A DNA stretch of 63,505 nucleotides, the filler included, from Folioceros fuciformis (lineage: Eukaryota): assembly GCA_049999805.1 (NCBI GenBank). It is 8 parts of 8 records of this genome, joined end to end, with 100 filler letters (N's around TTAATTAATTAA, not from the genome) between each part and the next. Parts side by side here need not be neighbours in the genome. Positions count along the whole stretch, not along the records: positions 1 to 6,839 come from JBNGIO010005329.1; positions 6,940 to 12,421 come from JBNGIO010005330.1; positions 12,522 to 21,009 come from JBNGIO010005331.1; positions 21,110 to 28,662 come from JBNGIO010005332.1; positions 28,763 to 35,002 come from JBNGIO010005334.1; positions 35,103 to 41,622 come from JBNGIO010005335.1; 2 more parts are not named here. The stretch is one strand, 5' to 3'. Made by a program: the position numbers and the translations under genes. Every line of letters starts with the position of its first letter. Within the stretch, counting starts at the first letter, position 1. This document shows, piece after piece, positions 6,400-35,821 of the stretch. The notes under the pieces were generated by a model that searched no databases, was not told where the DNA came from, and saw only the letters and a program-made list of their open reading frames with translations.

Positions 6400-6449
6400 C
6401 AGGTCTTTGCGGATGAAGCCTTCATGCCTGCATCCAATCGCATGGCCTG
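6400..6449 (+). other. 3' UTR stem-loop with GGATGAAGC core (Copia-A)
   Basis: CAGGTC..TGC-GGATG pairs with CATCC..GCA..GGCCTG; similar fold in Copia-B and E. Confidence 0.55.
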
Positions 6450-6452
6450 CTG

Positions 6453-6746
6453 TTATTCTGGCAATGGGATTCGCGCTCCTGCTGCCAATCTCTCCACCAG
6501 ATCAGATCTTCTGCATTGTGCCCTGGTGGCCGCATCTGTCCCATTTTCCGGCTTCACGGTTACCATCAGTGCCAGCTCAATGTCCCATCCTGCTAGGGCG
6601 ATCAGTTTTCTTGCTTCCAGTTTTTTTGTATTTTCGCACTTGTGCCTTGCGCGCCCATTTCCGCAGTCTTTTCTATACGTGCTTGGCGAGCAAGAACAAT
6701 GCAATGGCAAGTGCACAGCTTGAGAGCGCCAGATGCGCTGCTGCAC
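6453..6746 (-). CDS. Putative antisense 3' accessory ORF of Copia-A (97 aa, GTG start)
   Basis: Open frame between pol stop and PPT; stop abuts the hairpin; weak motif match to the Copia-E antisense ORF. Confidence 0.35.
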   Translation of the reverse strand: MQQRIWRSQAVHLPLHCSCSPSTYRKDCGNGRARHKCENTKKLEARKLIALAGWDIELALMVTVKPENGTDAATRAQCRRSDLVERLAAGARIPLPE

Positions 6747-6792
6747 TTATCATCGTTGCTGGTGTTCTGACCGTGTCGTGGTTAAGGGGGTG

Positions 6793-6839
6793 TGTTAAGA
6801 CTGAAAAGTCTATAACCACGCCACTAGGGTTACTCTGAT
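6793..6839 (+). repeat. 3' LTR of Copia-A (truncated by gap)
   Basis: Identical to 1-47, preceded by the PPT. Confidence 0.95.
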
Positions 6840-6939
6840 NNNNNNNNNNNNNNNNNNNNNNNNNNNNNNNNNNNNNNNNNNNNTTAATTAATTAANNNNN
6901 NNNNNNNNNNNNNNNNNNNNNNNNNNNNNNNNNNNNNNN
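6840..6939. other. Artificial contig linker N44-TTAATTAATTAA-N44 (also 12422-12521, 21010-21109, 28663-28762, 35003-35102, 41623-41722, 62222-62321)
   Basis: Identical 100-bp construct seven times; the 12-mer gives stops in all six frames. Confidence 0.97.
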
Positions 6940-7236
6940 TATTATTTAATTATTTAATATTATATCTTTAAATAATATTAAACTAATCACCCAACCCTAT
7001 GGCCCGGTACCGAACCTAAACCTTCCCAGGTCTAGGACCAAACCTATACCCACTCTTATAACCAAACCAACTATTTCCTGGTCAATTAACTTAATTAGCA
7101 CAAAGAAAAATAGGAAAAATGACCAGAAAATCAAGGAAAATTAGGGAAAATAAGTTGAAAAAGAAAACCAAACCATACCACTATTAAACCTTTTTCAACC
7201 AAAACAAACTACTACCCCAAACTTTGGAGGTTCACA
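6940..7236 (-). repeat. Terminus of high-copy LTR family TGTGAACCTCCAAAGTTTGGGG (copy 1)
   Basis: Same terminal sequence at 20909-21009 (+) and 35103-35143 (-), each with different flanks and running into a contig break. Confidence 0.8.
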
Positions 7237-8186
7237 TCGACTGATTACCTCCTGCCCGCGCATCCCCTTTTGCGCTTCCCTTCCTTGGTTCACCACAAAA
7301 CCGCCTCACTCTCCTCAGAAACAAACGCACACACACATGAACAGCAGCAATCTGTTGGACGCCTTCCACCCGCGTGATCTCACACGTTAGATACACCCCC
7401 TGCGGTCTCAATTCAGCTTCTTCATAGCCTCTCCAGTCTCATCGCGACCAATCACACACCACGTCTCATTGCACCCCACACACATTACCCACCTCGCCTC
7501 CGGGGTTTCCCCGACTTTGTTCTCTCTTACCCCACTCACCAATTCTCTGTATACATTCTGCCCGTCTTAACAGTCGTCGAATCACTTCCACTCCGCTTCA
7601 CTTCCTGCTCCATTTCTTTTGGCTTCCTTTTCGCATTCGCTCTTACCCACTACTCGGCCACTCGCTCCTCCTCCTTCTCACACACGCGCACTCCCGCGCT
7701 CTCCTTTCTCCGGTTCTTCAGTCTTCTTTCTCAGCGATGCCCCCTCCTGGGCTCCTATTAACATTGAGGAATGGTGAGGTACCGGGGCTAAGGGAAGAGG
7801 AGTCCCTTCCACTCCGAACTCGCGGATTCGGCTCCGACACCCGCACCACCCCACATGACCACCTCAAGGATAGCTGGGGAGCTTCTCTCCCACTCGGCGA
7901 GGCTCCTCCTCCCGATTCGTCCCCGGGCTTGATCACGGAGCGCCCACCACCTACACCCGCACCCCAGGTTGCTACGTGCGCTCGCTTGCCTGGACCTCTT
8001 GTCCAGCAACGGCCATCGCGAGGTCCCTGCACGGTCGACTATTCGGCTGGTTCTTGCTGATGTCTTAGGCGTTCAAACCGGCCTCTTGTACACGGTGATG
8101 GTGGCAGGGGAGCTGCACTCTTAAATTCTAAGCGACTTAGGTCCTAATAAAGCAAGGTAAAAAAATCCTATACTAGCCTGCATTTA

Positions 8187-10748
8187 CTATCGCCCTTTCC
8201 CACGCCGCTGGCGGCTTCCTCCTGGCCTTCGCGTGTCACCCCTTGCCGCCCCTCCTCTCGCTCTTCTGCCCCTCCGTTGGCCCGGCAGATCCTCCCAGAG
8301 GATCTCCACATCACTGCTGCTGCTGCTGGACCCGGTTGGCGGCGCAGGTGGGTCCCGCCGCTGTGGTCCACCACTCCTCCTCCTTCTCTGGTTGCTGAGG
8401 ACAGCCACAGGCCCCCGTTCTACCCAACGCTGGGCCTCCTCTTCCGTCAGTTCCTCCAGAACTGCCTCCGCATAGCAGTGGGGCAGTCCTGTAACCCACG
8501 AGCTGTAGTGGTAGAGTCCCAGGCTCGTCCTCAACTGTAGGCCATAGCCCCGCGCCCCTCCTGTGCCCATACGTACATACAGAAACAGCTTCAGAACCCT
8601 GGCCCCTTCTACATACAGGCCTGGCACATAGGAGGCCTCCTCCTCATACTGCAGCACAATCCGACCTTCTGTCATAACAGAGGTGCTTACCCCGTCCTCC
8701 CTTGGGCTACCTCGGGTTGCCTGCTCCCCCTCTTGCTGGGGTACTTGAAGGTTCTCTGCCTGCCCAACTGTTGCCTCCTCCGGCTCTATCCTCCTGGTAC
8801 GGGTCACCCTCCTGGAGCGCCTAGGGGCAGGCGCCCCTACTACTTCCTCCTTCGTTTTCCAGGGTTGGTTCTTCAGCTATCCTGGGCCTTGCTGGGCCGC
8901 CGGTAGCCACGTCGGCTACCCGACTACTGGTAGTCCCGTTGACTACCGGAGTACGGGTAGTCCCCTCGACTACCGTTCCCCTGGTTCGGCTACCGGTAGC
9001 CCCTTCTGCTACCGGGGTCGCCAACTGACTCGGACGCCCAGCCTTGCTCTTCCCCTTCACTCTCTCTCTCTGGCCTCATCCTACTCCCGCTTGTATCTGT
9101 CAGCCAACTTCTGAGCCTACTCCACAGCGACTATCTCCATCTCCTGTGCCCTGGCCATTTCCTGTTGCATCTCCAACTTAGTCTCGTGAGCCTCCCTCAC
9201 CTGAGCTAGCACGGTCCCTTGTTGCTCTTTCAGCGCTTGCACTTCAGCCCTCGCCTCGCGCGCCTCTTCCTCAGCTTGAGCCTTCTCCCTGTCAAAGACC
9301 CGCTGCTTCTCCTCCAGTAGTTGCCGTGCCCTCTCCGACTTCGCCTGTTGCCTCCTTGCTTCAGCCTCTCGCTCACGAGCCTTCTCCTCCTTTCCCCAAG
9401 CCTCAGCCTCTCGCTCCGCTTGTACACTTAACCATGTCAGGGCCCTAGCAGCCTGATCCAAGAGGTCTGCTTGGGCCTGCACCATCGCAGCAGTCAGCCC
9501 GGGTAGGTCCATGTCCTGCACCCCTCCGGCGCCCATTCCTCTCGCCGTGATTTGTCTGCCCAGGAATTCTCGCAACTTGTCCAGGTCCCCCACCTGCAAC
9601 CTGTCTCTCTAAGGCTTGCACCTGAAAATGTCCTTCCACCTTGAGGAACCCTCCTGTGCTGAAACGTGCCCTAACTTATCCTCCTGTCTGGAGGAAACTG
9701 TGTCGGCTGCCATCGCCTGATCCGGTGGCTCCTCGGGTCTTGTCTCACCCTGACCTTGCTCTTCCAACCTTCGGTCCTTGATTCCCTGGACAGCTGGTTC
9801 TCGTTCTGCCTCCTGCTGACCCGTCTGCTCCAGGGCTGTCCCCCCTTCCTCCTGATTAGCCCCCATGCTCACACTTTGTCTTCTGGTCCTTTTCCTCATG
9901 GCAGGAGTCTTCTTTTGTGGCGCCATCCTCTTCCTGAGCTTGACTGGGGTTTCCTCCTGCGAGGTATTCCCACTGTCAGCTTCCCAACTGTTGGAGGCAG
10001 CCCTTGCTGGCTCAGTGGGCTTCCACTTCACATCGCGAACTGGCTTCCACAGGTGCAGCAAGGCCAGCCTTTCTAGCTCAGTGACAAGGTTAGCGTAACT
10101 GTACACATGGATTAGAAACGAGGAAATCATAGAAGGTTCAAGGGTGGGTTGGATCAGGTTCTGCCTCTCCTCATCCATCCGGGTGTATAAAATCCTCCCC
10201 CAGTCGATCCTGGTGCCCTTCACTACTTCATGCACAAACAGGAGCATCTGATCGGACAGATAATCCTGTTTGCGTACCTGGAAGAAGCTCAGGAACCACC
10301 TGGCCAATCCCAACAGCTGGGGACTTGCCATGTCGCGCACCAGCCACCCGTTCGCTTCCTTTCTCGTGCCTGCCTTGAGGAGCGTTTCCGCGGCTCCCGT
10401 TTCGCCACGCCTCTTCAGGGACTCTAGCACCAGTCCCCCTTCCTCCTGTTGGTCGCACCCGTAGACCCTCCTAATCAACTCCAAGTTCCATTCCTGGGGT
10501 CTGCTTGTGATCCCCTCCTCGCGTACAGGCTCTATCAGCCTCAGGGCGCACTCCCTGACTAGCTGGGGTGCTGCATGGTTCCACTTCTGGGTCATAAAAG
10601 TCAGACCCAGCTGTGCCACCAACTTTCCTGCCCTGACCTTCCAGTGCTCCATATTTGGCCACAGGAGTAGGTCGATTCGGGGGATAGGAGGCCCCCCCTC
10701 CTGTCTAGAGGCTGCTGCTCCAGGGATCAGTTCAGACCGCGACCTCAT
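8187..10748 (-). pseudogene. Degenerate retroelement accessory gene (plant-transposon-protein-like domain, then coiled coil and low-complexity tail)
   Basis: 379-aa ORF 9609-10748 continues in frame past a TAG into coiled-coil ORF 9117-9599, then fragments 8821-9060 and 8187-8807. Motif LLFVHEVVKGTRIDWGRILYTRM resembles extra ORFs of Athila/Tat-type elements (recognition only). Confidence 0.5.
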
Positions 10749-11507
10749 CCTGGCTGTCCTCCTCCCCTCACGCTTGGGCTCGGAACTCTTCTGTCCTAGT
10801 CACGTTTTGGCTCTTCCTCTGTTCGCCTAGCTCTCTCCACCGCTCGCGCCTTGGAGGTCTCCCACTCTCCTGTGCCTGCTCAACCCTCATGCCCTACGCC
10901 GTCTGCCCCGTCATCCTGGCGCTTTCTCCTCCTTCAGCCGCTTCACGCTTCAAGTTACTCCCGCTCCCCGCGCTTTCGGATGCTGGACAAAGCTCCCCTT
11001 TCTCTAGGGTTTTTATGTCCTACCTGCTTTCTCTCCTTACCGCCCGTCGGGCTACCACCAGTCGTCCCTCCGGCGACGGTTGCCCTGCTGGCTACCGTCG
11101 CCCCGTCGTCTCGGCCCTTACTTCTGCCTAAGTCCACAACTGGCCTGCTCCCTAATCATTTTATTTCCTTATTTCTCCAAAAAAAGGGGGGGGGGGGGGG
11201 AAGCATATATGGAGACCTAAGGGGCCCGGACCACCAAAGGCCAAGGACATACCCCACTCACCTACCTACAGACCTGGTCCTTAATGTTCTTAATGACCCG
11301 AGGGCCAAGGAGGCACTCGCTCATTCCCCCTCCTTGTCCCGGTCTCCAGTACACCCCAAACCCCAAAGCCCAAGAGGGACTTTGGGCATAAACACCCTGG
11401 TCTTGTTTACCTACTAAGCCGATTTGCCTATCCCTTCACAAAAAAAATCACAACCTGCTCATTCCGTCGCTCAAAATGGGGGTTCCGAAAATTTTTTTCG
11501 TTCACAA

Positions 11508-11940
11508 TAGGCACATTCCTTTACTTGGAAGGGCCCCAGTACCTCCCCTACCGATTTCTACCTTCCAATCACNNNNNNNNNNCCGATTTCTACCTTCCAA
11601 TCACGTTCCTACCAATCGTGCAACACGTCTCGTCAGTAGGTAGGCACCATTCCTTTACTTGGAAGGGCCCCAGTACCTCCCCTACCGGTTTTTTCCTCCC
11701 TACACTCAATACCTTTTCCTCACAAGGCTCCCTACAACACCCTCCTCTACCCACAATCTAACTGCTCGTCTCCCTACACCCAGCAACCAACGAGTTTCCT
11801 CCGAGCCTACTCCGCTCCCTCCAACTCTGTTTATCGTTCGCCTACAACATTCAACCTTTCCCAGCGCGTACCTTCAACACGTCCAGTCATTAGGTAGGCA
11901 CCATTGCTTCACTTGGAAGGGCCCCAGTACCTCCCCTACC
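11508..11940. repeat. Three dispersed ~45-bp direct repeats TAGGCACCATTCCTTTACTTGGAAGGGCCCCAGTACCTCCCCTACC
   Basis: Copies at 11508-11552, 11641-11686 and 11895-11940. Confidence 0.9.
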
Positions 11941-12578
11941 AACTTCCAACTACCTACACCCAGCACCTTTCCCCACAAGTCTCCTCACAACACCTTCTAC
12001 ACGATCCAACTCCACATTTCCCTATGTCCAAGACTCCCAACCACACATCACAAGAACCTTTGCCATCGGCAACAAAAAGGGCACTCGCAGCCCCCCCTTC
12101 CGCCATGATGTCCACGTAGGCTTACGAAAATTGGTTCTCTATTCATCACGAAACACTTACAATCAAAGAATGGGGGCCTGGCTCAAGTTCTTTGTTCTAC
12201 TTATATAGGATGGTAGACGGCTTCCTACCTACCACTAGCCGCGGCCAGCTTTAACTACACACACCTACCAAGAGGCTAAGACCTACCAATAGTTGCTAAG
12301 GCAGTGCGCGCCGATGAAGATTAGGATTGTCGGTGCCGCCATAGAAGATTCGTTGACCCCCTTTTTCAAAAAGGTATGGCTAGGATGGCTCTTGAAGGGA
12401 GGCAGAGTCTGAAGGTTGAGCNNNNNNNNNNNNNNNNNNNNNNNNNNNNNNNNNNNNNNNNNNNNTTAATTAATTAANNNNNNNNNNNNNNNNNNNNNNN
12501 NNNNNNNNNNNNNNNNNNNNNCATCTTCCGCTGCTATGCTAGGTATGTCTAAGCAGCAATTAAACACATCTAGCAAAG

Positions 12579-13188
12579 ATGTCTCGGAGAAATAGGTATA
12601 GGCAATATAGGGCTAGGAACAACCAGGATCGTGTCACAAGCAGACCTACGGCAACACCAGCGTTGCTCAGATCCTCAAATTTTCCAGCCAGACAAGAACT
12701 GCCCTACCTTCGTTCTCCAGCCTTTAGAAATCCTTTCTTCCCAGATCTGCACAGGAATAGCGTGCCCTATACTTGTGCATCGAGCCTGGTTAGGTCAGGA
12801 AGGCAGAGAACAGCAAGCTTCTCCGAGACTGACAAATTTCAGACTAGGTCTTTCACCTGCAGAGTTGAACAGAATTTTGGGTCCTCTGCAAGAGCAATTG
12901 CTGGAAGACATAAATAGGGTTGAGAATACCACCTGGCTCAGGAAAAGGGAAATTGTGACCAACATTGACGTTGTCAGGATCCAATTGGAGCAGGTGACAG
13001 AAAGGCTGAATTGCATCCTTAGGTTGGAAAGCAAATCTATCGTTCACGGTCTAGAAGGCGAATCCCTTGGTCAAGGCTCCCGCTGCATGGCTAAACCCCA
13101 TCCATCCTCTTGCACCAGATCACAAATCCCTGGATCAGGAGTGCTAGATCTGAAACAACACAGCAGGAAATTGAAACGTCGCGTCTGA
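12579..13188 (+). pseudogene. Copia-B accessory ORF0 (probably one frameshift)
   Basis: MSRRNRYRQYRAR start in frame 12579; coiled-coil half in frame 12631-13188 aligns without gaps to Copia-E ORF0. Confidence 0.65.
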
Positions 13189-13476: not shown

Positions 13477-16400
13477 ATGGAGGAGAACATAGATCCGCTG
13501 CCAGATTCCATCACAAATCATGGAGTCGCTGGGGTTCTCTTTGGTGGACCAGCAGCGACCGACGCTTCCATAGCAAACCTCGCGTCCCTTTTCCAGGCTT
13601 TTGCAAGCTTTGCAGGCTTCAATTCCTCGGGGACGCAGACCCCTACCAGATCGCCTTCCACCAGAGCCGCCTCCACATCGCTAGGTCCCGGAGCCGCTGC
13701 CTCCACATCGCGAGGGTTTGGAGCCGCCGCATCCACTTCCACTTTTGCCCCAAGCACAGGGCCCGCAAATCCCCTGCCAACACAAGGAATTAAAGTTGGG
13801 AATCCTCTGCCCAGCCAGGGAGCAGGATTCGCCCCTCTCTGTCTTCGTTTGGAGTCGGATCTGGGTACCCCTATGCTGGACCAGGAGGCGGTTTTGGAGC
13901 GGGTCCTCCACCTCTGCGACCATTTGGAGCAGGACTCGGTAACCCAGGCACAGGTTTTAGTGACCTAGGAGCGGGACTCGGTGCCGGCTTTGGGAGTGGT
14001 TTGGGAGCAGGTCCTCTTCCTAACCCTTACCAGCAAGTCCCCCAACCCGGTGGTCTGCCTCCTCTTCCTCCGTATCCTCNNNNNNNNNNNNNNNNNNNNN
14101 NNNNNNNNNNNNNNNNNNNNNNNNNNNNNNNNNNNNNNNNNNNNNNNNNNNNNNNNNNNNNNNNNNNNNNNNNNNNNNNGTAGTGAGTGGGCAGTCTCCT
14201 CAACCTGCTGTCAATGCCAGCCAAATCGACAAGGATAGATGGGACAATGCCAACAATGTAGCGCGTGCCCTGTTGATTAGTGGCCTTGACGAGGTTTTGG
14301 TTCCTGACGTTGCTTTCCTGCTCAAGGCCGAGGACATCTGGAATCAGCTTTCACAAACTTATGATGTGAAAAACATACTGACACTGGTAGCAGTTCGAAG
14401 TGAGTTCTTTTCTCTTCGAATGTGGGACAACGATAAAGTAGCAGCTTTTGTGGCTAAGTTTCGACACTTACGTTCACAGCTTACCTCGCTTGGCTCCCCT
14501 ATGACAGATCTTGATGTTGTCGCCCAGTTGCTGACTAGTCTTCCCTCAAGCTATCAGCCGTTTGTCTCTAGCTATGGCGCATCCTTGCGTGATGCTGCTA
14601 AAGCCATGGCTGTCGGTCAACCAGCGTAGATCAGTTTAACAGATGTTGTTGGAGCCTTGTTTCAAGAAGAGCAGACACGAACTAGCTCACATTCCAACTC
14701 TGGCCGCACTAAGATGGATAAGGTACTTTTTAGCTCTAAATCTAGGCCAGGCAACTATAGCAAAACCAGATCTGGACACTCACCTGCAGCTGGTTCTTCC
14801 AAAGACTCCAAACCGGGCCAGATCAAACGCACCGGCTCGTGTAATTGGTGTGGTGCAGCTGGCCATTGGGAGAGGGAATGTTGTAAAAAGAAATCTGGGG
14901 AACCCAAACGAGCTGAGTCTTCTCAAAAAGGGGCTGCTACTCACACTGTCTCCAAGGCCAAATCTTCCTCTGGCCAGTCTGCCACCAAGCAGTCGGTGGT
15001 TTTAACAACTTGTTTGTCTACTTTTTCCAAGACAGATAATGCCTGGTACTTGGATTCAGGAGCAACGACACACATATGCCACGACAGGAGTTTGATCAAC
15101 AATTTCGTTCCTCTTCTTACCTCTGAGAGGGTGCTGCTCGGTGATGAACTCACCCGTTCAGGTTTGAAGATACTTGGCAAAGGTTCTTGCCATTTTCAAA
15201 ATTCCCGTGGCCAGCACTTCCAGCTTGATGATGTCCTTTACGTCCCTAATATGGCAAAACACTTGCTGTCCGTCAGTCAGCTGTTACGTACTAGTGCCTA
15301 CAATATCGCTTTTACTTCTACAGGCTACTGTATTTTTCACACAGATTCTAGCAAGTCCCTAGTTGCTCAGGGTCTCTTAGAACATGACCTGTATCGCCTG
15401 GATATGGTGTGTGTTCCTACTTGTCGCGCTCACCTTGTTGCTAAGTCGCAGGAAGCACTTGCCCAACTTTGGCATGCACGTCTAAGTCATGCCAATCAGG
15501 ACAAGTTAGTTCGGATGTCTAAGCTTAATTGTTATCGGGAACCTCTTCCCAAGTGCTTTCGAGAGTTACCTAGTTGTACAGCCTGCATTGTATCTAAGCG
15601 GAAGGAGTTGCTTTCCCTTCGACGCCTGCACATAGAACTTCCAATATTTTAGAACTTGTCCATGCTGACATTTCTGGGAAGATCCATGTTGCCTCTCTGG
15701 GTGGCTCTCTCTACTACTTGACAATTACTGACGACTATAGCAGATACTCTTGAACTTACCCAATGAAACGCAAGTCCGACACTTTTTAGTTCTTCCAGGA
15801 GTGGCTGGTTATGATCTAGCATCAAACAGGCTGCCTTCTCCGCTGCCTCAAGTCCAACAATGGGACTGAATTTGTTAATTCTGCCTTCAATGAGTACTTG
15901 GCAGCACATGGGATTACTCGTCAGTTTAGTATTCCTTACACCAGTAACAAAACGGGGTTGCTGAGCGTAGGAATCAAACTCTTCTTAATATGACCAGGAG
16001 TATGCTAACATGGTCTGGTTTGAGCAAGGCGTATAAGGCCAAGGCTGTCGTGACTGCTACATATATTCTCAACAGGTTGCTTACCTCAGCTTTGCCTGAT
16101 CGCACACCTTTTGAAGCGATGTGGCAGCGCAAGCCCAATCTCCTTCACCTTCGAGTTTTTGGCTCCCCAGCCTATGCTCTTATCCATCCTGAACAACGTA
16201 AGAAACTGGATGATAAAGCACGACCCCTTGTCTTTGTTGGCTATGGGGAGGAATCCAAAGCTTACAAGCTTTACGACCCGACTTCAAGGAGCCTGGTTTT
16301 TGCCCGCAGCGTCAGCTTTAGGGAACTTCACTCTCCTACCCCTTCCTTTGATGGGCTTGCTTCTGAGTTCCCCTCTCTGCCTGTGTCGTCTGCCTCTCTA

Positions 16401-18580
16401 GACACTGATGCGTATGATTCCCCTGCTGAGTATCCCCAAGATGTCTCTTATGAACTGCCTCATGCCTCTCCTATGCCTACTGGCCGTTCAGGGGGTGGAT
16501 TTGTGCAGCCTGGAGCTACATCTCAGCAACCCGGAGCTACATCTCAGCAGCCCGGCACTCAGTCACCACCCACTGCGCAGCCTCAACAGCTTGGGTCATA
16601 GCCTGGTTTACAGCCGTCACCGTCGCCAGCTTCAGTCCGATCTCCTATCACCATTTCAAGTCCAGCTAACTCAGATTTACACTTATCTGTTGAAGAACTT
16701 GATGATACTCTCGCCATGGACGTGATAGGTGATGCAGTCTCCGCTACTGATGAACCCGAGCCTGTAGATCCTGTCATGGATAGTCATGAGACTCTGGACG
16801 TCATGGCTGATCCTTCTTCACCTACTTCCGAACATGCGCAGGTGGATGAACAAATTTACACTCACCTCGAGCTTGAACCCGCTGAAGTAGAGTTGCCTCC
16901 TCAATCTGAACCTGTTGAGGAACGCAGATACCCCAGCAGGTCACCCCCATCTCGAGACTAGTGGAATGAACGGCCCTACCAGCCGGAAGACTTTAGGCAG
17001 CCTCGTTCAGCCCGACTTTGTGAAGCCTTCTCCACAAGCATCGTCCATCCTGCTAAGCCACGTACATACAAGGAGGCAGTGAATGGCAAGGACAAACACC
17101 ATTGGATCCCTTCTATCCAAGATGAGTATGATTCACTTTTTAAGAATGGAACTTGGGAATTATGTCCCTTGCCCGCTGGACGTAAAGCTGTTAGTTGTAA
17201 GTGGGTTTTCAAACATAAGCTCAATGTACAAGGAGAAATCGCCAGGTACAAAAGTCGTCTTGTAGCCAGGGGATTTTCTCAAGTTGCTGGTGTGGATTTG
17301 CACGAGACTTTCAACCCCGCGGTGAAGACACAGTCCATCTGGATGATGCTAGCCCTTGCAGCAGCCAAGGACTAGGATCTCAAACAGATGGATGTGTCTA
17401 CAGCTTGTCTCTACGGAGACCTCGAGGAGGGTATCTATATGGAACAGCCTGAGGGTTTCGTGGATCCTGCACATCGCACCTGGGTATGTAAGTTGAAGAA
17501 AACGATTTACAGTTTGAAGCAAAGTGCCCGAGAATGGTATAAGTGTATCGACAAGTACTTGAAGTCCATTGGGTTCATCCAAAATCCGGCTGATGCTAAC
17601 GTGTACATCTACAACAAGGGTGGTCACATGGTTATATTAGCCCTCTATGTTGACGACGCTATCCTAGCCTCTAACAACAGGGAGCTCTAACCTTTGTCCT
17701 CGGCGTGCAGCTTATTCGCGACAAGGCTCATCGCACCCTTATCCTTCATCAAACAAAATATATTGGTGAGACTCTTCGACGTTTTAACCTACAGGATGCC
17801 AAACTAGTGAGTACACCTGGTAGTGTTGGTTTGAAGCTTACCTCTGTGCAGAGCCCTCAGGATGACGCAGACCGCGAGCTTATGCGCCTGGTGCCTTATT
17901 GGCATGCTGTTGGGTGCCTCAACTACATTAGCTGCTGGACCCGACCCGATATCCAGCATTCAGTCTTTGCTGTCTCACAATTTCTTGAGGATCCTGGTCA
18001 GGTGCACTGGGTAGCCGTTAAAAGAATACTGCGTTACCTCAAGGGTACCTCCACATATAGACTCTGCTTCCGAGTTGGAATAGATGAAGCTGTCAGCCTT
18101 CAGTGTTTCTGCGACGCAGATTGGGCCACCGATCTTGATCACCGCCGCAGTCTCTCTGCCTATTGTTTCCTCTTGTCAGGTGTAGTTGTTAACTGGAGCT
18201 CCAAGAAACAAGTTTCAATAGCGTTGTCCTCAACCGAGGCAGAATACAAGGCCCTTACAGATGCAGCCAAGGAGGCTGAGTGGGAACGCTCTTTCCTTGG
18301 TGGTTTGAACTTTGTGCAAAAGGACCCTACTGTGGTTTACTGTAACAATATGTCCACTATTGCCTTGGTAGGGAATCCGCGCTTCCACGCTCGGACCAAG
18401 CACATCGAGATACATCACCACTTTGTTCGACACTCAGTGGAGAGGAAGGTGGTTAGCATTGAGCACGTCCCCACTGAGCTGAATACTGCGGATGTGCTCA
18501 CTAAAAGTCTACCCACGCTGAAGCATAACTTCCATGCTGAAGCTCTTGGTCTGGTGGACTACATAACCTTCCAGCCCTAG
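13477..18580 (+). pseudogene. Copia-B gag-pol pseudogene
   Basis: CNWCGAAGHWEREC, WYLDSGA, YVDD and CDADW in successive ORF fragments; short in-RT deletion near 17690. Confidence 0.92.
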
Positions 18581-20908
18581 CAACAGACAACACCAAGATG
18601 GTTCGGCTGGATGAAGCTTTGCTGCTCTACCCAATCGACCGTACTCACTCCGCGCTAAATGTCTATCACCTAACCAGTGCCGTGGTTAAGGGGGTGTGTT
18701 AGAAATAACCCCCGTTAGGGTTATGTATTTGTAACCAGCGTCATGGTTAGTATAGTTTAGGTTAATTATCCAAAGGTCACTTAAAGTGATATATAAGACA
18801 CAACCTTTCCTTGTAATTATTGATTCTTTATTCATTGTTGTTTTGTACAATGCGTTGGCTGCTTTGCCTAGCAACTTGCATTCTTCACAGTTTTCTACCC
18901 ATACCTATACGGACCTCTATATTCTTTGGAGACAATCATGGATCACGAGAATTCAACTCCTTCATTCTTTGTGCGACATTCTCTTGGTTTCTCCACGAAA
19001 CCTAGAGGTAAATGTTGTGGCGATGTCAAGGAAGGCACAAACTTCATCATGGCTTTCATGGAAGCCATCATTGAGCACTATGTGATAGAAGCGTGATGAA
19101 CATGCTAACAAGCGTGATTTGCAAGCCCAAGGGCATGGAGGTTCCGCAAATAACCGTATAAGGATGGGAGGAAAGATTCCAAGGTCCCCCAAGTCTATAA
19201 AAAGCGCTAGTTGTCTTGATCATTTCATGCTTTCCGTATGCCTGTCTAATGCTTTCAATCAAATGCCAGGTATCGTCTTCAGCAACATCCTGATTGCTTG
19301 TCGGTGACTATATAAAACTGTTTCTGAGAGCATTTTCTTTCTTCTTCCTTTCTACGCATTAATTCATGCTTGGTAAGAGAGACCTCTTACCGCAACCTGA
19401 TGTGCATGAACAAATGATTGGCTCATGGATGCTATGGGTAGGGAGGGAAGAACGTGTTGCACTGTGCTTTCATACACAGCCCCAACTCTAGGTTTGAAGA
19501 AGTACAAAGTGGTGGTCTTTTGGTTTTCACATCGTTCGTTTTCATCTTTAGGATGTATATTTCAGTTTTTGAGCAACCAAAGCTGGAACAAGATGTCACT
19601 CACTCAAATCGCATTTGGAGCTCCTCAAGAGCCTCCATGTAACGGTGACACTAAACAAAACCGAGCGGTAGGTCACTAGATGGTCACTCATTGCCGCTGT
19701 GGTGCATTAGACGAACGACATCGTGCGAACCCATCGTCACCCGTGGCTAAGGCCACCACATGCCTTCATCGACACTTGCTTAACAAAAACAAATACGAGT
19801 AATGATCATGCCTCATGAAGTTAGGACGAACTCTTCAAGAGTGCTGATCGTTAGGAACTCATTTTTTATCGAACTTGGCCCACTGCGAGAAGAGTATTGG
19901 ATCGATCATGGTGTGTGCTAGTCCTCGGGATTGGAAATTTAATGACAGAAATACAGCAAAAGAGAATAGTAGGATGGGGTTGATTGTGCGAAGCCATGAT
20001 GTATACCAGATTTAGCCCTTGCGGCCCGGTGACGGAAATGTATCGTGTGCAAGCTTCCAAGCATGGCCTGAGGTTGGCCCTCGAGTCCCCAGTACAACTT
20101 TCACCCCTAAAGGCCCCGTCTTGCCTCTCCCTCAACAGAGCGCAGTGTGCAATCACATGGTTGTTGGTGCAAGTTTAGGGAGACGCCATTGGATGCTAGG
20201 GAATGGGAAGGGACTAGGCAACGCTGACTCCCATGACTGTGTGCATCTAAAGACGCTTAAGATCACAGTCCCCCTTGGTAGACTATACAATGTCATACAT
20301 GTGGACCATCCCAATGAAAGGGGCTGTATGCTTGTCACACAGATCACATCTGCAGATAGAATTGCAGTGGAGTTGTGTGTGCCCTTCTCCATGCTGGTGG
20401 GTGCGAAGTATGATGGATCTAGGTTCGTGCATGGAACCATAGTAGCAAAGATAATGGAGGCTGTCTCGTTCGTATAGTTTGCCACGGAGCAGCTTGGTGC
20501 CGGGGTGCTTCATTGAACAACATGAGCGACTCCTAGCTCGCAAAGTTGTTAGCCTTGAGCAGACAACTTTGCGAGCCAGGAGCGAACAACTTTAGTTGCA
20601 GCACCCACAGGCTTGGAGCCCAAGACTCAGGAAGAAGCAGACCACATGCAGCTAGTCTGCCTGGTGGCACAACTGAACTACAACAAGTAACACGGTATTG
20701 GACCGTCTGGCATTAAGCGGCCTCCTTCAACCTGGGACAAAAGAAGGGGAGAGATCCTCGTTCGCCCAGCCCACACTGCCTATCGAAGTGGTTCTACCCC
20801 TGACTCTCGACCGACTCCTGCTTCCACCTAGGAAGAAGAGGACTGACGAAGAGCCCTACCTTGTTCGGTAGTCCTAGAGGACTTAATTTGTTGAGTTTCA
20901 TGGATTTA

Positions 20909-21009
20909 TGTGAACCTCCAAAGTTTGGGGTAGTAGTTTGTTTTGGTTGAAAAAGGGTTAATAGTGGTATGGTTTGGTTTTCTTTTTCTACTTCTTTTCC
21001 CTAATTTTT
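20909..21009 (+). repeat. TGTGAACC-family LTR terminus (copy 2)
   Basis: Near-identical to the reverse complement of ~7136-7236. Confidence 0.8.
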
Positions 21010-22834
21010 NNNNNNNNNNNNNNNNNNNNNNNNNNNNNNNNNNNNNNNNNNNNTTAATTAATTAANNNNNNNNNNNNNNNNNNNNNNNNNNNNNNNNNNN
21101 NNNNNNNNNTCCTCTTCAACAAGCACCAGACCATGTTGATTTATTTGATGATCCGCCAGCTGGAGTACCTGTCCATGAGGCTTCAGTACCTGTCCAGATT
21201 GAACCTTCCTTAGTTCCTCAAGAAAGCAGGTACCCTAGCAGGTCTCGTCCTCAAGAGAGCATTGGAGAGAGCCACCTTATCAGTCTGTTGACTATAGATC
21301 TACTAGGTCGGCTAGGTTAGCTGAGTATTCCTTCTTGCAGTCACTGACTAGCCATCCCTCTGAGCCTGGATCATACAAGGAAGCTGTCAGTAGTGCAGAC
21401 AAAGATCATTGGATTCCGTCAATACAAGATGAGTACAACTCGTTGATGAAGAACCAAACTTGGGAATTGTGTCCACTTCCTGCAAGCAGAAAAACAGTCA
21501 GCTGCAAGTGGGTTTTTAAACATAATCTAGATGCAGAAGGCAAGATAGCTCGTTACAAATCCCGTTTGGTAGCACGTGGTTTCTCCCAGGTTGCAGGTAT
21601 AGATTTCCATGAGACCTTCAGTCCTGTAGTGAAAACCCAGTCTATTAGAATGATTTTAGCACTAGCAGCTGCACGTGATTGGGACTTGGAACAAACGGAT
21701 GTCTCTACTGCATTTCTCTACGGCGAGCTGGAAGAAGACATTTTTATGGACCAACCTGAGGGCTTCGTCGATTCTGAGCATCCCGACTGGGTCTGCAAAC
21801 TCAAGAAGACCCTTTACGGCCTCAAGCAGAGCGCTAGGGAATGGTATAAATGTATTGACAAATACCTCAGATCCATCGGTTTCACTCAGAACCTTGTTGA
21901 CGCAAATGTTTACATATACTATAAAGGAGGCCACCTAGTTGTCCTTGCGCTTTACGTCGATGACGCCATCCTGGCGTCAAATAGCAAAGAACTGTTATGC
22001 TAGGTCAAGCAAATGCTGCACAAACAGTACGATGTGAGAGACATAGGTCAACTTACCTTTGTGTTAGTTGTCCAGCTCCTCCGAGATAGAGCCAACAAAA
22101 TTCTAGTACTTCATAAGACCAAGTACATTGATGAGACTCTACGTCGTTTCAACTTAGACCAAGCGTAAATCTTTCGTTATCGAAGACTAATGTATACTCA
22201 TGCGCTCCCTTCAACATTTCCTTCCAGACCTCATAGCAAGCAACCAACAAGTTGCAGACCCAGCCAGCCATAGCTCCTACTACAAAAGGAAGGAAGGAGA
22301 AAAATTCAGCCTACTTGGTTACTGTGATGCGGATTGGGCTGCTAACTCTGATACAAGAAAATCAATCTCTGCATACTGTTTCAAGTTGGTTGGAGGAGTA
22401 GTCACTTGGTCGAGTAAAAAGCAAACCTCAGTCTCACTATCATCAACGGAGGCTGAATACCAAAGCAGCTAAAGAAGCTATCTGGTTAAGAAGATTACTT
22501 AAGGATTTTCAACAACCATAGTTTGAACCTTCAGAAATCTCTCCTTTTATGTGATAACCAATTAGCTTTGGCTCTTGCTAGAAACCCTATATATCATGCT
22601 TGGACCAAACACGTGGAAGTGCACCACCATTTTATAAGAGATGCTGTTAATAACAAGGAGATCAAGCAAGAATACTGTAAGACAGACAAGAACTCAGCTA
22701 ACTTGCTGACTAAACCACTTTCAAAGGAGAAACACTAGACTCATAAGGAAAATCTCAGCATGGTAGACTATTCAGCAAATCAAGTGACTAAATGATGAGC
22801 AATTTCACCAGCTATCCTGGCAGTGGAGGTAAAG

Positions 22835-23460
22835 CTAAGTCAATTCAAAGTCACATGTGTTAGTGGATAAGTAGATAGTGTCTTCTTTGTCGTCACTTTC
22901 TAGCTCAGTTTGGTACAACTCATCTTCATAGAAGTCTATCTCAGGCTTCTACACCGTAATCTTGATATGATGGCAATTGTAGCACTTCACAGCTCCTGTA
23001 TAATAAGGCACACACACAAGTCAGTAGTTAGTAAATTCCAACTCAGTTTATAGCAAAACATAACAAAAGTGTGCATACTATCTGCTATAACTCACTGTAG
23101 AAGGAAATGATTTGCTGTCTTGGTTGCATGCCCCTCCATATCTCAAAATCAAGCCTTGATATCCATAGTTCAGTCTCTTGGCAGTAGTACGCTCTTGGAC
23201 TGCCTGGATCATTCATGTTTCCCCTAGTGAACAGCCCTTGAACGAAGATAGATCCCTTGGGCAGCAGGTGATAGTAGAGACAAGGTCGCGTCCTTTCTCC
23301 ATCCTACAGCGGATGAATCCACTTGATTATAACAGCTGGTTGAGGAACAGGGCGCACTACAACAGCGTTGTCATCACAGGGCAAGAAGGATCAACAATCT
23401 ACTGGATTTTGCAGCAATATTCTCAGAAGCCTGTAGAGATTTAGCAGGAGTAGCCATCCT
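22835..23460 (-). pseudogene. Spliced antisense gene relic in the 3' region of Copia-C
   Basis: Minus-strand intron 23095-22996 (GTGAGT...CTAAC...TACAG); splicing joins ...QQIISFY to RAVKCYNCHHIKIT... in frame; internal TAG stops. Confidence 0.5.
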
Positions 23461-28662: not shown

Positions 28663-28774
28663 NNNNNNNNNNNNNNNNNNNNNNNNNNNNNNNNNNNNNN
28701 NNNNNNTTAATTAATTAANNNNNNNNNNNNNNNNNNNNNNNNNNNNNNNNNNNNNNNNNNNNGAACCAAAGATA

Positions 28775-30075: not shown

Positions 30076-30450
30076 TCAGGCTCCTTGCATGAGATAGTCG
30101 TCATCTAATGGAGATAAATACGAGGGCAGTGGTATGTCTCCAATTCGAAAGGGGCACCCCTCTAACAGTGAACGCCATGGCTTGACTGTCAAGATTTGAG
30201 CGAAAGACTCCTTCTCACTTGTTCTGTAGATGAACTTGGCTCCCATCAACCTCCGCGAGAAGATAGCAATAGTCTGCCGGCCTGGGTCTCCAGTTCTGTT
30301 GCAAGACCGCACCAACGACCAACTTGGAGACATGGGTTGTTATAATAACAGGCACCGTTTGGTTTGGGTGTGCTAACATAGGGGCTTTCCTCAAAGCAGT
30401 CTAGCTATCACGAACTTGGTTGTCTTTAATAGCAACTCAAGTCTAAACCT
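30076..30450 (-). pseudogene. Ty3/gypsy pol relic (RT connection/RNase H)
   Basis: TALRKAPMLAHPN...THVSKLVVGAVLQQ, then (frameshift) IAIFSRRLMGAKFIYRTSEKE...KPWRSLLEGCPF; the relic probably extends to ~29500-30960. Confidence 0.7.
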
Positions 30451-31252
30451 AGCGGGTTGGTTGCCCAAGTGCACGCCTCTCCTCCCCATACATTTGTTTG
30501 CATACATAGCCTCTACGCGTCCCCTGTGGGTTGTACACGACTTTGAGGTCGAAAACCAAACCGAACATTTGGCAAAAGCATGGTCAAACGGAGTGTGTGC
30601 AGAGTTACGACCATGTTTCAGGTGTTTAGGCTGGAACACAGGCAGCCTTCGGGTTCAAATCCCAAACACCACCTGTAACCATGGGTGGGTGCGCGCCTGT
30701 GCTTGGGCAAGGTTTGCTTGCAAAGTGCACGCATGTCCGGTTTGGTTGTGGCTCTCAAACTTCCGTACGTGCGAAACTGGACGCGTAATCCATGTGTTCC
30801 ACTTAAAGTGAGGGGACGCGTTCCCTTTGTGATGCCTTACTCATGCATTCAGGGACTCCACTTCAGAGTCAGTGTTGTCACATTCCATGTTTGTTCAAGC
30901 TGTGTCCCAAAGTCTGTACAAGTCATGGCAATGACGGTGCCTCTTCTCCAAGCCTAGTTCGTACATCATGCATCCCCTCTGTATAAGAATACGTAGTATT
31001 TAAGTAGTCAAAGACATATAATAATTAAATAATTATAGACAATAGCCGAAACGCCATAAGGCGTGAGGCTTGTAAAGGTCACGACTAACAATCGTGACCT
31101 AAAGACTAACCGCCGTACCCCCGCGATGGGACACGGCCAACCGCCACCGTCTCCTTCCTTCAAAACGATCGCGTGCGCAACATAAATTAATCTTTCGTGA
31201 TTCTATCTTTTCTAAGCAATCAATCCTACCATCTCTTCATGGTATCAGAGCC

Positions 31253-31429
31253 ATGGACGCTGCCATGTCTGCTAATCACTGTCCAATTTGTCTGAGTGGA
31301 GATTGTATCAAAAGTCTGGAGTTCGACCATTTCCGAATTCTTGTATCTGCACTCAAATTGGCATTGATTAGGTTTGGTAGCATGGCAGATAGGTTCCTAG
31401 CAGAAATTGTAGATCACTATTTCTCCTAG
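31253..31429 (+). CDS. 58-aa upstream ORF directly after the Copia-D PBS
   Basis: MDAAMSANHCPICLSGDCIKSLEF...HYFS*; ATG abuts the PBS and the stop lies 8 nt before the ORF0 ATG. Confidence 0.4.
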   Translation: MDAAMSANHCPICLSGDCIKSLEFDHFRILVSALKLALIRFGSMADRFLAEIVDHYFS

Positions 31430-31437
31430 AAACTACC

Positions 31438-32070
31438 ATGCCGAGAGCAAGAGGGCAGCGGAAGTCAAACCTGTTGGTAGATCGCTTCGCTGTTCAAAAT
31501 AGTCGGTTTGCACACGAACAGAATCAAAACTTGAACCATTTTCTATCGCACATTGTACTACCTGCTGTTTCCCCAACAAATTTACGGAACCAGCAGGCAT
31601 CTTGTGCATTTTCTAGGCATCAGGCGAATAGGCACCTTAGTGGTGCTCATTCCGACTATCTCACAAATTTGAAAACAAACGCTAGAAGGAAAACTGAGTA
31701 CTTGCACACAAATTCACAACAACGTTCTAGGCAACTAGAAAATAGACCACTGTGTGATAACTGCACAAGTAGTCTAGCCGTGCCAAGTCCTGCAGACCAC
31801 CTTCTAGCAGAAGTCCATAATCTTATAACATGTCAAGCCGAAACAAATCGACACCAATTTGCTGACATTGATGAGAGAATTAAGGACAATAGCAGATCTC
31901 TTGTTCTGCTGTCTCAACAGATAGCTGTACTATCCATCTCCTTTCGAAAACCTGCACCACAATCAGAGAAAGAGATTGCATTAATCAATCAGGTGCATGC
32001 AATGAAGGATATGTTCAGTAACAAGGCAGAACTTAACAATGGATCTGTAGCTGTCCCACCAAATGTCTAG
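31438..32070 (+). CDS. Copia-D accessory ORF0, 210 aa
   Basis: ACCATG context, MPRARGQRK start, heptad-like C-terminal half; positional homolog of the other ORF0s. Confidence 0.65.
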   Translation: MPRARGQRKSNLLVDRFAVQNSRFAHEQNQNLNHFLSHIVLPAVSPTNLRNQQASCAFSRHQANRHLSGAHSDYLTNLKTNARRKTEYLHTNSQQRSRQLENRPLCDNCTSSLAVPSPADHLLAEVHNLITCQAETNRHQFADIDERIKDNSRSLVLLSQQIAVLSISFRKPAPQSEKEIALINQVHAMKDMFSNKAELNNGSVAVPPNV

Positions 32071-32105
32071 CCTGCTGTGTGGATGTCACATAGAGGCAAA
32101 GAAGA

Positions 32106-35002
32106 GTGAACCCATCAGGAAGAGGCATACCTCATAGTAGAGGCCAAGCATCTGACAGTGCATCAGATTCGTTCGATCCTCTATCTCTTGGTACCTCTTC
32201 ATCTCGGTCAAACACATCTTCCTCTTCAAGGCCAGTGCCTAGTGCTCAGTCTAGCACAAGTGCTGCATCACAATTACAAGCATTTAGACAAGGACTTGCT
32301 TTGCAATTAGCAACACGCTTAATTCAAACAATGGCGGCAGCTGCACCTGCTGGGACAATAAATAACACCACGGTGCATAATCTAAAAATAGATTTCAAAG
32401 AGAAGGATAGGTTTTCGGGTTCCCAGTTTGACATATGGGCCCTGCGAGTGAAAACCATCCTCAGAGAGCACGATTTGTGGGATGTCGTCACTGGAACCTC
32501 TCCCAAACCAGCCCAAGGGTTAGCCCAGGCTGATATTGATGCATGGAACAAGAAGGACCTGCGAGAATTGGGAGTAATTCAGGCGGCATTAGATGGCACT
32601 ATGATAGATTACACACGCGATGTTGCATCAACAAAAGAGGCTTGGGATGCACTTACTCAAGCTTTCCAGGTCGTCAATGGTAACTGCAACCAGGTCCTTC
32701 TACACAAACAAGATGAAGGAGACAGATTCTATTGAGGCTCACGTCAGCAAGTTCCGACTTCTGCGCTCAAAACTAGCAACCAGCGGCTCAACACTAACTG
32801 AAATTCAGGCTTCAACAACTCTGTTGCTCACTCTCCCGGAGAGTTATAGGACCTTTGTGAGAAATTACAGCTCAAATCTCCGCAATATACAGCTTGCTAC
32901 CCCTCAGGGTCAGAACCCGGCTGTGCATTTAAGTGACCTGGTTGGTGCTCTTCTCGAGGAAGAGGCAACACGGACTGCTATCAGAGGTGGCACCTCCCAC
33001 AGAGGGGAGACCTCAAACAGGGCGCTCTTCACGCAAAGAGGCCCTCGTAGGCCACCACCTCGGCAGCCATGGTCAAACAGCAATGCATCTCAGGGTAAGA
33101 AACGTCCAGGGGCACAAACAACAAGGAAGAAGGGTTCTTGTAACTGGTGTTTGATACCAGGTCACTACGAGGCAGACTGTCGGAAGAAAAAGGCCAATGA
33201 GCCTAGACGGATTGCACCTCCAGCAGAAAGCAATCTTGTTCAAAAGAAAAATACTATACTTGCAGTATTCATGGTTGCAACAACCCAAGTGAATGATGTA
33301 TGGTACCTTGATTCATGTGCGTCAGCGCACATATGTCATAATAGGAGGTCATTTTTACATTATACTCCAATGCCACCTGGTTAGCAGGTGCTGTTAGGTG
33401 ACGACAGAGGTCTCAATATAGAGGGAGTAGGCACAGTGCCAGTCCTCCTCACTAATAGAAGTACCATCAATCTAATGGATGTGTTACACGTCTCTGCGAT
33501 GGTCAAGAACTTGGTGTCAGTCAGCAAGTTTCAACAACAACATGGCTTAGCTATTTCGTTCATAGGTCTGGACTGTTATCTTACTGACCCCCAATACAAG
33601 GATAGAATCTTGGGTACGGGCAAACCTGTCAATGACCTGTACGCACTTGATTTCACTTCCAAGTTTGGGCTGCCTGCACCTACAGTTCAGGTCAGTCAAG
33701 CACAAGTGAAGAAGCAGCAGTCTATACTATGGCATTACAGACTGGCACATGCTAACTTTGATAAAATGCAAGCCATGATTACCGATAATACTCTCTACAG
33801 AGAGAAGTTTCTGCTTAAGTTTGTAGACAAACAATTCTGTGAGGCGTGTGCTTTTGGCAAGCACCAACTTTTACCATACCGAGATACCAATCCAACACGT
33901 GCTACAAAGTTGCTTGAGTTGGTACATTCAGACTTGTGTGGACCTATGTCCATTGCTTCCCTTGGCAGAGCTAAGTACATACTCTCTTTCGTGGATGATT
34001 GGAGCCGCTATACCATCATCTACTTTATCAAACACAAGAGCCAGACGTTAGGCTGTTTCCAAGAGTATGTAACTTTTGCACAACGACAAACTGGAGAACT
34101 TGTTAAAACTCTGCGCAGCGATGGAGGAGGAGAGTACTGCTCTGAGGAGTTTACTGACTACTGTCGCTCCCTTGGCATCGCTCGCCAGATTACCACACCT
34201 TACACTTCAGCGCAGAATCCCATAGCTGAGCTTAACAACAAGCATCTCCAGCAAGCGGCGAAGTCCATGCTGAAGGTCTCCCGCTTGTCTAGGGGGTAAT
34301 GGGCAGAAGCTGTTGCGACAGCCAACTATGTGAAGATGCGCCTGCCAACCAAAGCTTTTCCAGGTGCCACCCCATATGAGCGGTGGACATCACACAAGCC
34401 ACGAATTAATCACCTACGTATTTTCGGTGCTTTAGCCTATGCACATTTGGCTGAGGACCAGTGGGTGACGCTGGATTATAAAGCACGCAAATATGTTTTC
34501 GTGGGCTACACTGAAGGTATAAAAGGCTACAAGCTCTATGATCTTGATACTAGAACAACAACGCATTCTAGAAGTGTTCTTTTCAATGAACATGCACTGC
34601 TAGAACCTCCTCAATTAGCTCCTTTGAGCACACAGGCTTCAAGCAGTCATTCAGAGGACATAGAGATAGAAGACCAAACCATTGAGATGTCTATTTCGAG
34701 TCAGACTCCAGCTCAGGTTCCTGCACCCCATGTGCAGCAGTCTAGACCCTCTGTTACATCACATCAGCCTGCCATTAGTCATCAAACTCCACTAGATGAT
34801 CAAGTCGAGGAAACTAGCTACTTCCCTGATGATGATGAGTCCAGTCGAGTCTCACATGACATGGGTATGGCCAACAATGATGATGATGCTTCTAATGAAC
34901 AAGAAGTCGATGACGGGTTAGCATAGTCAGCAGAATCTGAAATCCCTCAACATACGGAGGTCTTTGTACCTGAGGAGCCTGTCAGACGAAGTACCAGGAG
35001 AC
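32106..35002 (+). pseudogene. Copia-D gag-PR-IN pseudogene
   Basis: Fragments 32106-32735, 32620-33384, 33388-34299 and 34330-34926 with copia motifs. Confidence 0.9.
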
Positions 35003-35102
35003 NNNNNNNNNNNNNNNNNNNNNNNNNNNNNNNNNNNNNNNNNNNNTTAATTAATTAANNNNNNNNNNNNNNNNNNNNNNNNNNNNNNNNNNNNNNNNNN
35101 NN

Positions 35103-35143
35103 CAACCAAAACAAACTACTACCCCAAACTTTGGAGGTTCACA
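35103..35143 (-). repeat. TGTGAACC-family LTR terminus (copy 3), abutting the Copia-E 3' region
   Basis: Identical to 7196-7236. Confidence 0.8.
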
Positions 35144-35240
35144 CTTGGCGCTTAGCAGAAGCAAGACTTCAATAGATCAGTAGGGGCTTTTCTTCCAATC
35201 ACGGTAGTGCGCTACCATCGTCACCACTCTCTCCTACAGG

Positions 35241-35627
35241 ATGGCCTGCAGCAGCTTTGACTCCTTGGAGATGGGCAGCAGCAGCATCAAGCATCTGAGA
35301 AATCCGCCACCTGAACAACTTCCTACTCCGTCATCTCCCTCTGTAACTGGGAAGTCATGGTGGCCAAACAAGGTTGATATGGAGCTGCTGTGGCATTGTA
35401 TCAAGGCGCTCGAGATGTGCAACAAATTGGAAGACCTCATCTCATTTGCAAAGAAGAAAGCATGGGAACCGAAGGCGCTACTGGCTAAGACAATTGCCGA
35501 GGATGAACTGTCGCAACCCTTAACACCTGCAGAGTACAGTACAGTGATGCGGGAGCTTGAAGAGCTTGGCTACATCCTTCGCTCAGCATCAAGTGAGAGG
35601 CAAACCTATCACCTTACAACACTCTAG
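35241..35627 (+). CDS. Antisense 3' accessory ORF of Copia-E, 128 aa
   Basis: ATG ORF with amphipathic-helix composition (..LTPAEYSTVMRELEELGYIL..); stop 3 nt from the 3' hairpin. Confidence 0.5.
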   Translation: MACSSFDSLEMGSSSIKHLRNPPPEQLPTPSSPSVTGKSWWPNKVDMELLWHCIKALEMCNKLEDLISFAKKKAWEPKALLAKTIAEDELSQPLTPAEYSTVMRELEELGYILRSASSERQTYHLTTL

Positions 35628-35821
35628 CATGTGATGCACTCACAACTGGATTCTGAACTTAGGCTTCATCCACTGAGGGCACCACAACGTTGACTTGCTA
35701 TGAAAAGGAGACAGTGAGAGCAAGCTCTGTATTTCGTGTGGATAGCTGGACCAAGTATGGATTATTGAAAACTGGACAAGCTAACTTGCAAACTGTCTCC
35801 ATGAGGACTAAACTAGGTAGG

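Follow-up and report, generated by a model that had tools for sequence, protein, structure and literature searches.

A candidate conserved stem-loop between pol and the 3′ long terminal repeat of three copia-type retrotransposons

What lies in the untranslated linker that separates the pol stop codon of a Ty1/copia retrotransposon from its 3′ long terminal repeat (LTR)? We consider this question for three copia-type elements, denoted A, B and E, in a 63.5-kb stretch of Folioceros fuciformis DNA made up of short contigs joined end to end (hereafter the window). Each of the three carries the 9-nt core GGATGAAGC downstream of pol, and all three (n = 3) come from this one window. The first-pass annotation had described these sites as a covarying RNA hairpin. 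The explanation that we favour, at about an even chance, is a lineage-specific conserved cis-acting stem-loop of the Ty1/copia group, located after the pol stop and ahead of the polypurine tract (PPT), which would be read by a protein on the genomic RNA. In our view the module GGAUGAAGC-N11-12-AYCCA is very probably a functional cis element, and the chance that the hairpin forms part of its function is slightly better than even. A conserved stem-loop module of about 45-55 nt is likely to be real, but with three copies in hand it is for now a well founded candidate and not yet a discovery.

A shared core and box in three linkers

The core occurs three times in the 63.5 kb (at 6411, 18609 and, on the minus strand, 35671), compared with an expected 0.49 occurrences, and at least three copies were present in one of 100 shuffles of the window. 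Each copy has the orientation of its element and falls within the untranslated linker that runs from the pol stop to the PPT. The invariance of the core downstream of pol that had been reported for A, B and E is thus confirmed, as are the three quoted hairpin strings and their positions. The elements, mapped by tblastn of the polyprotein from the first contig against the window, and their 3′ features are as follows.

1-6839, plus strand: element A, copia-type (Ty1/copia)
6373-6375, plus strand: pol stop codon of element A
6376-6792, plus strand: untranslated linker of element A from the pol stop to the 3′ LTR, 417 nt
6400-6449, plus strand: stem-loop of element A, 50 nt; core GGATGAAGC at 6411-6419, right box ATCCAATCG at 6432-6440
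About 14180-18580, plus strand: element B, frameshifted, 55-68% amino-acid identity to A
18578-18580, plus strand: pol stop codon of element B
18581-18696, plus strand: linker of element B, 116-117 nt, with the LTR starting at 18697
18598-18642, plus strand: stem-loop of element B, 45 nt; core at 18609-18617, right box ACCCAATCG at 18629-18637
40194-35822, minus strand: element E, 44-54% identity, two in-frame stops
35824-35822, minus strand: pol stop codon of element E
35631-35685, minus strand: stem-loop of element E, 55 nt; core at 35671-35663, right box ATCCAGTTG at 35651-35643

Relative to the pol stop the core is found at +36 in A, +29 in B and +151 in E, and it is upstream of the PPT/LTR junction where this can be defined (6793 in A and 18697 in B). 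A 9-mer present in each of the three linkers (417, 116-117 and 295 nt) arose in eight of 20,000 dinucleotide-preserving shuffles. Single words of 10-12 nt that the linkers share with the window occur at the chance level (E 1-15), and it is the coincidence of three copies in one and the same context that carries the argument. A second box, AYCCA, follows the core after 12 nt in A and after 11 nt in both B and E. In A and B it reads AYCCAATCG, with CCAATCG common to both. The remainder of the linkers, outside the core and box, gave no alignment among A, B and E. Because this remainder is unalignable and the pol proteins are 44-68% identical in amino acids across the pol segments (56-65% over the last ~200 residues), we regard the core as being under constraint.

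The module is non-coding, as judged from several features. The spacing between core and box differs by 1 nt between A and B, the frame of the core relative to pol differs between these two elements, and open reading frames (ORFs) beginning at the ATG of the core extend for 141 (A), 15 (B) and 8 (E) codons. Furthermore, tblastn of the polyprotein against the linkers yielded no match below E 2 in any frame.

Folding of the three sites

The hairpin boundaries in the first-pass annotation were picked to pair, and fixed windows were for this reason used as well. The annotated boundaries are those of the minimum free energy (MFE) hairpins, with values of -16.9 (z -1.74) for A, -13.9 (z -1.76) for B and -17.7 (z -2.94) for E. 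Fixed windows of 55 nt, extending from -15 to +40 relative to the core, were ranked among all windows of the same length from their own element, and the three sites fall within the most stable 5.6% (A), 6.9% (B) and 3.7% (E). Since the inner stem GGAUG/CAUCC is itself conserved sequence, the flanks were also tested alone, pairing the 15 nt to the left of the core with the 20 nt to the right of AYCC against a background of all pairs of the same geometry in the same element. Since the test covered every occurrence of the core, pairing played no part in the choice of sites. The flank duplex reaches -14.0 kcal/mol (p 0.011) in A and -17.1 kcal/mol (p 0.002) in E, and a Fisher combination of the three flank p values gives about 4e-4 by our own arithmetic.

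The outer helix occupies the same offsets from the core, -11 to -7, in A and B. Its five pairs, given as A/B, are C-G/A-U, A-U/U-G, G-C/G-C, G-C/G-C and U-G/U-A; two are changed on both sides, one is changed on one side and two are unchanged, the double changes showing solely when columns are matched by their offset from the core. The helices of element E, an outer one of 7 bp and a middle one of 3 bp, differ in sequence. Taken together, the results for the fixed windows, the flanks and the outer helix favour a real stem-loop.

The structure we propose would have a sequence-invariant inner stem, GGAU(G)/(C)AUCC, built from the 5′ core GGAUGAAGC and the 3′ AYCCA box, an apical part that varies among the elements and an outer stem of 8-11 bp that differs in sequence among them and would still pair. 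Because the core is invariant in sequence and not merely in pairing, we infer that it would be read sequence-specifically by a protein, which could be Gag or its nucleocapsid (NC), the product of a leader ORF or a host factor. The stem-loop would presumably act post-transcriptionally, in the export, packaging or stability of the full-length genomic RNA.

Several observations weigh against this proposal. In B the flank duplex is -7.7 kcal/mol (p 0.195), which is within the background, and other flank lengths give p values of 0.067-0.365, the lowest of these with shorter flanks. The earlier statement that the outer stems differ yet pair therefore stands for A and E and is weak for B. RNAalifold on a MAFFT alignment of the three sequences found none of nine pairs to be compensatory, with a covariation term of +1.55, and recovered the invariant inner stem GGAUG/CAUCC alone; with n = 3 and indels, MAFFT did not place the outer stems in common columns. 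Covariation is consequently not demonstrable at this sample size, and 'covarying' is a description, not a statistic. G-U pairs had been thought to favour the sense strand, but the sense and antisense MFE values are -16.9 and -16.7 for A, -13.9 and -16.7 for B and -17.7 and -13.3 for E. With an antisense hairpin as good in A and better in B, folding does not single out the RNA sense strand. The distances from the core to pol and to the PPT are not fixed, the PPT lying ~340 nt away in A and 45 nt away in B. Element C, despite retaining the 3′ end of pol, is without the core, and the longer hairpin assigned to it in the first-pass annotation is not supported as a member.

21233-22768: element C, a reverse transcriptase/RNase H fragment with the 3′ end of pol
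22784-22853, plus strand: 'longer hairpin' of element C, containing GATGAGC but no core; z -0.61, with 51 of 200 shuffles folding as well

More distant relatives also lack the core after pol. A metagenome scan gave 80 copia loci with 39-50% amino-acid identity in the C-terminus of pol, in 75 of which 100 nt or more follow the pol stop. The first 400 nt after pol in these 75 loci hold no exact copy of the core (0.1 expected), two copies with at most one mismatch (2.9 expected) and 31 with at most two (36.7 expected). The motif is accordingly lineage-specific and not a general feature of copia elements. What remains of the cis-acting RNA element as first annotated is a conserved, foldable element of the linker, shorn of its covariation, its sense preference and element C.

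Element layout, leader regions and wider searches

The other features of the window to which we refer are listed below.

1-232, plus strand: 5′ LTR of element A, TGTTAAG...TAACA, 232 bp
233-243, plus strand: primer binding site (PBS) of element A, TGGTATCAGAG, directly after the 5′ LTR
1267-6375, plus strand: gag-pol frame of element A, open from stop to stop apart from an N gap, with RVT_2, rve, gag and other copia domains
6784-6790, plus strand: PPT of element A, AAGGGGG
From 6793, plus strand: 3′ LTR of element A, interrupted by the N gap at 6840
32388-34887: element D, gag to integrase only, 30-34% identity
41433-41444, minus strand: PBS-like sequence of element E, TGGAATCAGAGC, directly after the LTR end ...TTTACA
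6840-6939, 12422-12521, 21010-21109, 28663-28762, 35003-35102, 41623-41722 and 62222-62321: spacers between contigs, N44-TTAATTAATTAA-N44

The LTR length of 232 bp in element A follows from the 100% identity of bases 1-47 to 6793-6839, and the first contig is a collapsed copia element with ends overlapping by 47 nt. We take TGGTATCAGAG to be a PBS of the tRNA-iMet type, as in other copia elements. The last 16 nt of the B linker before the LTR, CGTGGTTAAGGGGGTG, are identical to those of A. Of the 5′ LTR of element E the contig contains only the last ~178 nt, and a search for a 3′ LTR match gave nothing, so that a PPT/LTR boundary is not definable; the pol of E also shows a 20-column gap relative to A and B in the C-terminal alignment. 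The nearest database proteins to these elements are 45-52% identical, indicating that the host is not represented among the database proteins matched. We also observed a 101-nt inverted match, 97% identical, between 7137-7237 and 20908-21008, at the start of the second contig and the end of the third, which is likely to be an assembly overlap or a shared repeat. No tRNA was found in the window.

Each of the elements A, B and E has in its long 5′ leader an ORF, here called ORF0-like, and the leader of A contains in addition three words that recur in the hairpins.

554-979, plus strand: ORF0-like ORF in the leader of element A, 142 aa, strongly basic N-terminus
12579-12914, plus strand: ORF0-like ORF in the leader of element B, 112 aa, strongly basic N-terminus
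41239-40757, minus strand: ORF0-like ORF in the leader of element E, 161 aa, strongly basic N-terminus
Within 984-1057, leader of element A: TTCGGCTGGAT, matching the left flank and core start of the B hairpin
Within 984-1057, leader of element A: GAATCCAG, matching the right arm of E
Within 984-1057, leader of element A: GCATCCAATCG, matching the right box of A

Pairwise BLASTP among the three ORF0 products gave nothing below E 2, and none of them matches a Pfam family; by eye their C-terminal parts look heptad-like. The three leader words, of 8-11 nt each and within 75 nt of one another, have individual p values of 0.025-0.04, and their co-location was noticed post hoc. Such shared words were not seen in the leaders of B and E. 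Region 984-1057 may be related to the 3′ module as its 5′ counterpart. A stable 10-bp hairpin is also present in the leader of A at about 989-1024.

Rfam 15 gave no match at the gathering threshold anywhere in the window. At E <= 10 the three sites gave five unrelated sub-threshold matches, none of which overlaps the hairpins consistently; one of these, an antisense match to an exoribonuclease-resistant RNA (xrRNA) with 16.6 bits against a threshold of 31, touches the 5′ part of the B hairpin only. Self-cleavage, which the first-pass annotation had raised, is left without support because no Rfam family, ribozymes included, matches the three sites. Among viral contigs no copia relatives were found, and a 20-nt word across the PPT/LTR junction had no match in genome contigs or viral contigs. 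Two DNA sequencing runs contain 21% of the sampled words, and no RNA run is among the matches listed. In each of the two one contig, ~93% identical, covers 5802-6822 and has no more than two 1-nt insertions; a relative therefore retains the linker in full. Run X4, which we guess to be RNA, gave five short pieces on 1-6839 and none on the linker. On the same interval DNA run X3, from the same sample, differs at 502 C>T and 537 G>A places with few other changes, as bisulfite-type conversion would give. Among the papers listed by full-text literature searches, no title or abstract opening describes a conserved stem-loop between pol and the PPT in copia elements.

Alternative explanations, known systems and meaning

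The same observations could be read as a conserved primary-sequence motif, either a binding site in RNA or DNA or a constrained ancestral patch, with an incidental hairpin whose outer pairing reflects chance and the choice of boundaries. We regard this as a real possibility, if a doubtful one. It is consistent with the pair GGAT...ATCC being a trivial 4-bp palindrome at chance frequency in the window (47 occurrences of GGAT-N8-60-ATCC, 51 expected), with conserved parts that lack covariation in RNAalifold, with B flanks that pair no better than background and with antisense folds that are equally good, as expected of a palindrome at the DNA level. Such a motif would not, however, lead us to expect the flank complementarity of A and E to rank within the top 1.1% and 0.2% of controls of the same geometry when every core was tested, or the MFE percentiles to be 3.7-6.9% in all three elements. 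That the 9-mer is pure coincidence, or a coding remnant derived from integrase (W-D/A-E-A ... N-R), is highly improbable and we disfavour it. The core is present in four of the 80 copia loci and in three of these (L054, L058 and L080) is read as F-W-D-E-A in the integrase region; the integrase of E itself has GGCTGAAGC...ATCCTGAATCG, and single linker matches of 10-12 nt are at the chance level. On the other hand, the three-way sharing arose in eight of 20,000 shuffles, and the spacer is about 7-9 nt shorter than the integrase segment and not collinear with it. The integrase-remnant reading was rejected, as no frame of the linkers resembles the polyprotein (all E > 2).

Two further readings assign the core a different role. 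It might be the start codon and context (GG ATG AAG C) of a small downstream ORF, expressed perhaps through a subgenomic RNA and decayed in B and E, which we find very improbable. The invariant core does contain an ATG, from which the frame in A is open for 141 codons, and by eye all three elements have, 3-20 nt upstream, a pyrimidine-preceded AG that such an RNA might use.

6413-6838, plus strand: ORF of element A from the ATG of the core, 141 aa, hydrophobic, running through the PPT into the LTR

The corresponding frames have 15 codons in B and 8 in E, however, and the conserved boxes of A and B are in different frames because their spacing differs by 1 nt. In the A linker the pol frame is also open for ~115 codons past the stop, so that long open frames in this region carry little weight. 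The product has no Pfam match, and its one match in 1.84 billion representatives (E 4.3e-5) is to a repetitive protein. With no conserved length or sequence and no credible homologue, a downstream aORF was rejected. An aid to reverse transcription, through pairing with the 5′ leader in the manner of Ty1 CYC5/CYC3 or with the primer tRNA as in the bipartite site of Ty3, is in our estimation quite improbable. The module is situated in the 3′ cis region, where passages of a study of Ty1 place CYC3 (PMC7969010), and 984-1057 in the leader of A holds three words of 8-11 nt shared with the hairpins. These words are direct repeats, though, and not complementary; no reverse complement of the core with at most one mismatch is present anywhere in A, and the energies of duplexes between the hairpins and the 5′ regions rank at 0.67 (A), 0.33 (E) and 0.02 (B) against shuffles, with differing partners. 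Conserved 5′ complementarity was thus not found and the signal is inconsistent, and Ty1-type cyclisation is not supported.

For a conserved cis-acting stem-loop in the linker, the nearest analogues by position and kind are the export elements of vertebrate retroelements and the 3′ cis region of Ty1, and we draw the comparison as an analogy without claiming membership. The constitutive transport element (CTE) of Mason-Pfizer monkey virus (MPMV) is a structured non-coding RNA between the last ORF and the 3′ LTR. Passages of a 2025 review describe export elements downstream of pol in the intracisternal A particle (IAP), namely the RNA transport element (RTE), and in MusD, namely the MusD transport element (MTE), and present these as structured non-coding RNA in this position with conserved sequence in stems and internal loops that is thought to be read by protein (PMC12786077). 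The stem-loops of A, B and E share the position between the last ORF and the 3′ LTR. They differ in that the CTE, RTE and MTE are about 150-400 nt long, comprise several helices and belong to vertebrates, whereas here a single stem-loop of 45-55 nt occurs in a Ty1/copia lineage, and Rfam revealed no similarity in sequence or structure to the A, B and E hairpins. Ty1 belongs to the same superfamily, the Pseudoviridae. Its 3′ end holds cis-acting sequences needed for retromobility, CYC3 and PPT1 among them, in the same region of the genomic RNA, according to passages of the Ty1 study (PMC7969010). CYC3 works by pairing with CYC5 in the 5′ region, and no such conserved complementarity was found for the module of A, B and E.

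A further conserved inverted repeat (IR) of the non-coding 3′ part of Pseudoviridae is that of Sireviruses and classic copia elements, which according to Bousios et al. (2010) sits next to the PPT and has its closing arm within the LTR (PMC2829016). Defined by a left arm bordering the PPT and a right arm about 18-28 bp inside the 3′ LTR, it is present in both A and B, where it matches the 'precisely positioned IR' of that account (PMC2829016).

6773-6784/6813-6824: PPT-flanking IR of element A, arms of 12 nt, 92%
18670-18688/18732-18750: PPT-flanking IR of element B, arms of 19 nt, 74%

The stem-loop is a separate feature, with 340 nt between its end and the PPT in A and 45 nt in B.

The leader ORFs invite one more comparison. 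In HIV Rev and the Rev response element (RRE), Tat/TAR and lambda N/boxB an arginine-rich peptide is matched to an RNA hairpin, and the A, B and E elements resemble these, by analogy only, in having leader ORFs with a basic N-terminus together with a hairpin whose internal loop is conserved. The RRE, at about 350 nt, lies within env. The ORF0 products of A, B and E show no detectable similarity to one another and match no Pfam family. We consider it improbable that an arginine-rich ORF0 binds the GGAUGAAGC/AYCCA stem-loop, and perhaps also 984-1057 of A, to export or package unspliced RNA.

To our knowledge, the cis-acting RNA signals of Ty1/copia elements beyond yeast Ty1 are almost unknown. 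Passages of the 2025 review note the absence of any direct study of RNA export in plant LTR retrotransposons (PMC12786077). If the ORF0 analogy were true, ORF0 and the stem-loop would form a pair in the manner of Rev and the RRE, within a retrotransposon of plant or protist type. A short motif kept invariant among elements with pol proteins of only ~50-65% identity would offer a way to find the factor that acts on the genomic RNA, and it would also serve as a marker for the lineage to which A, B and E belong.

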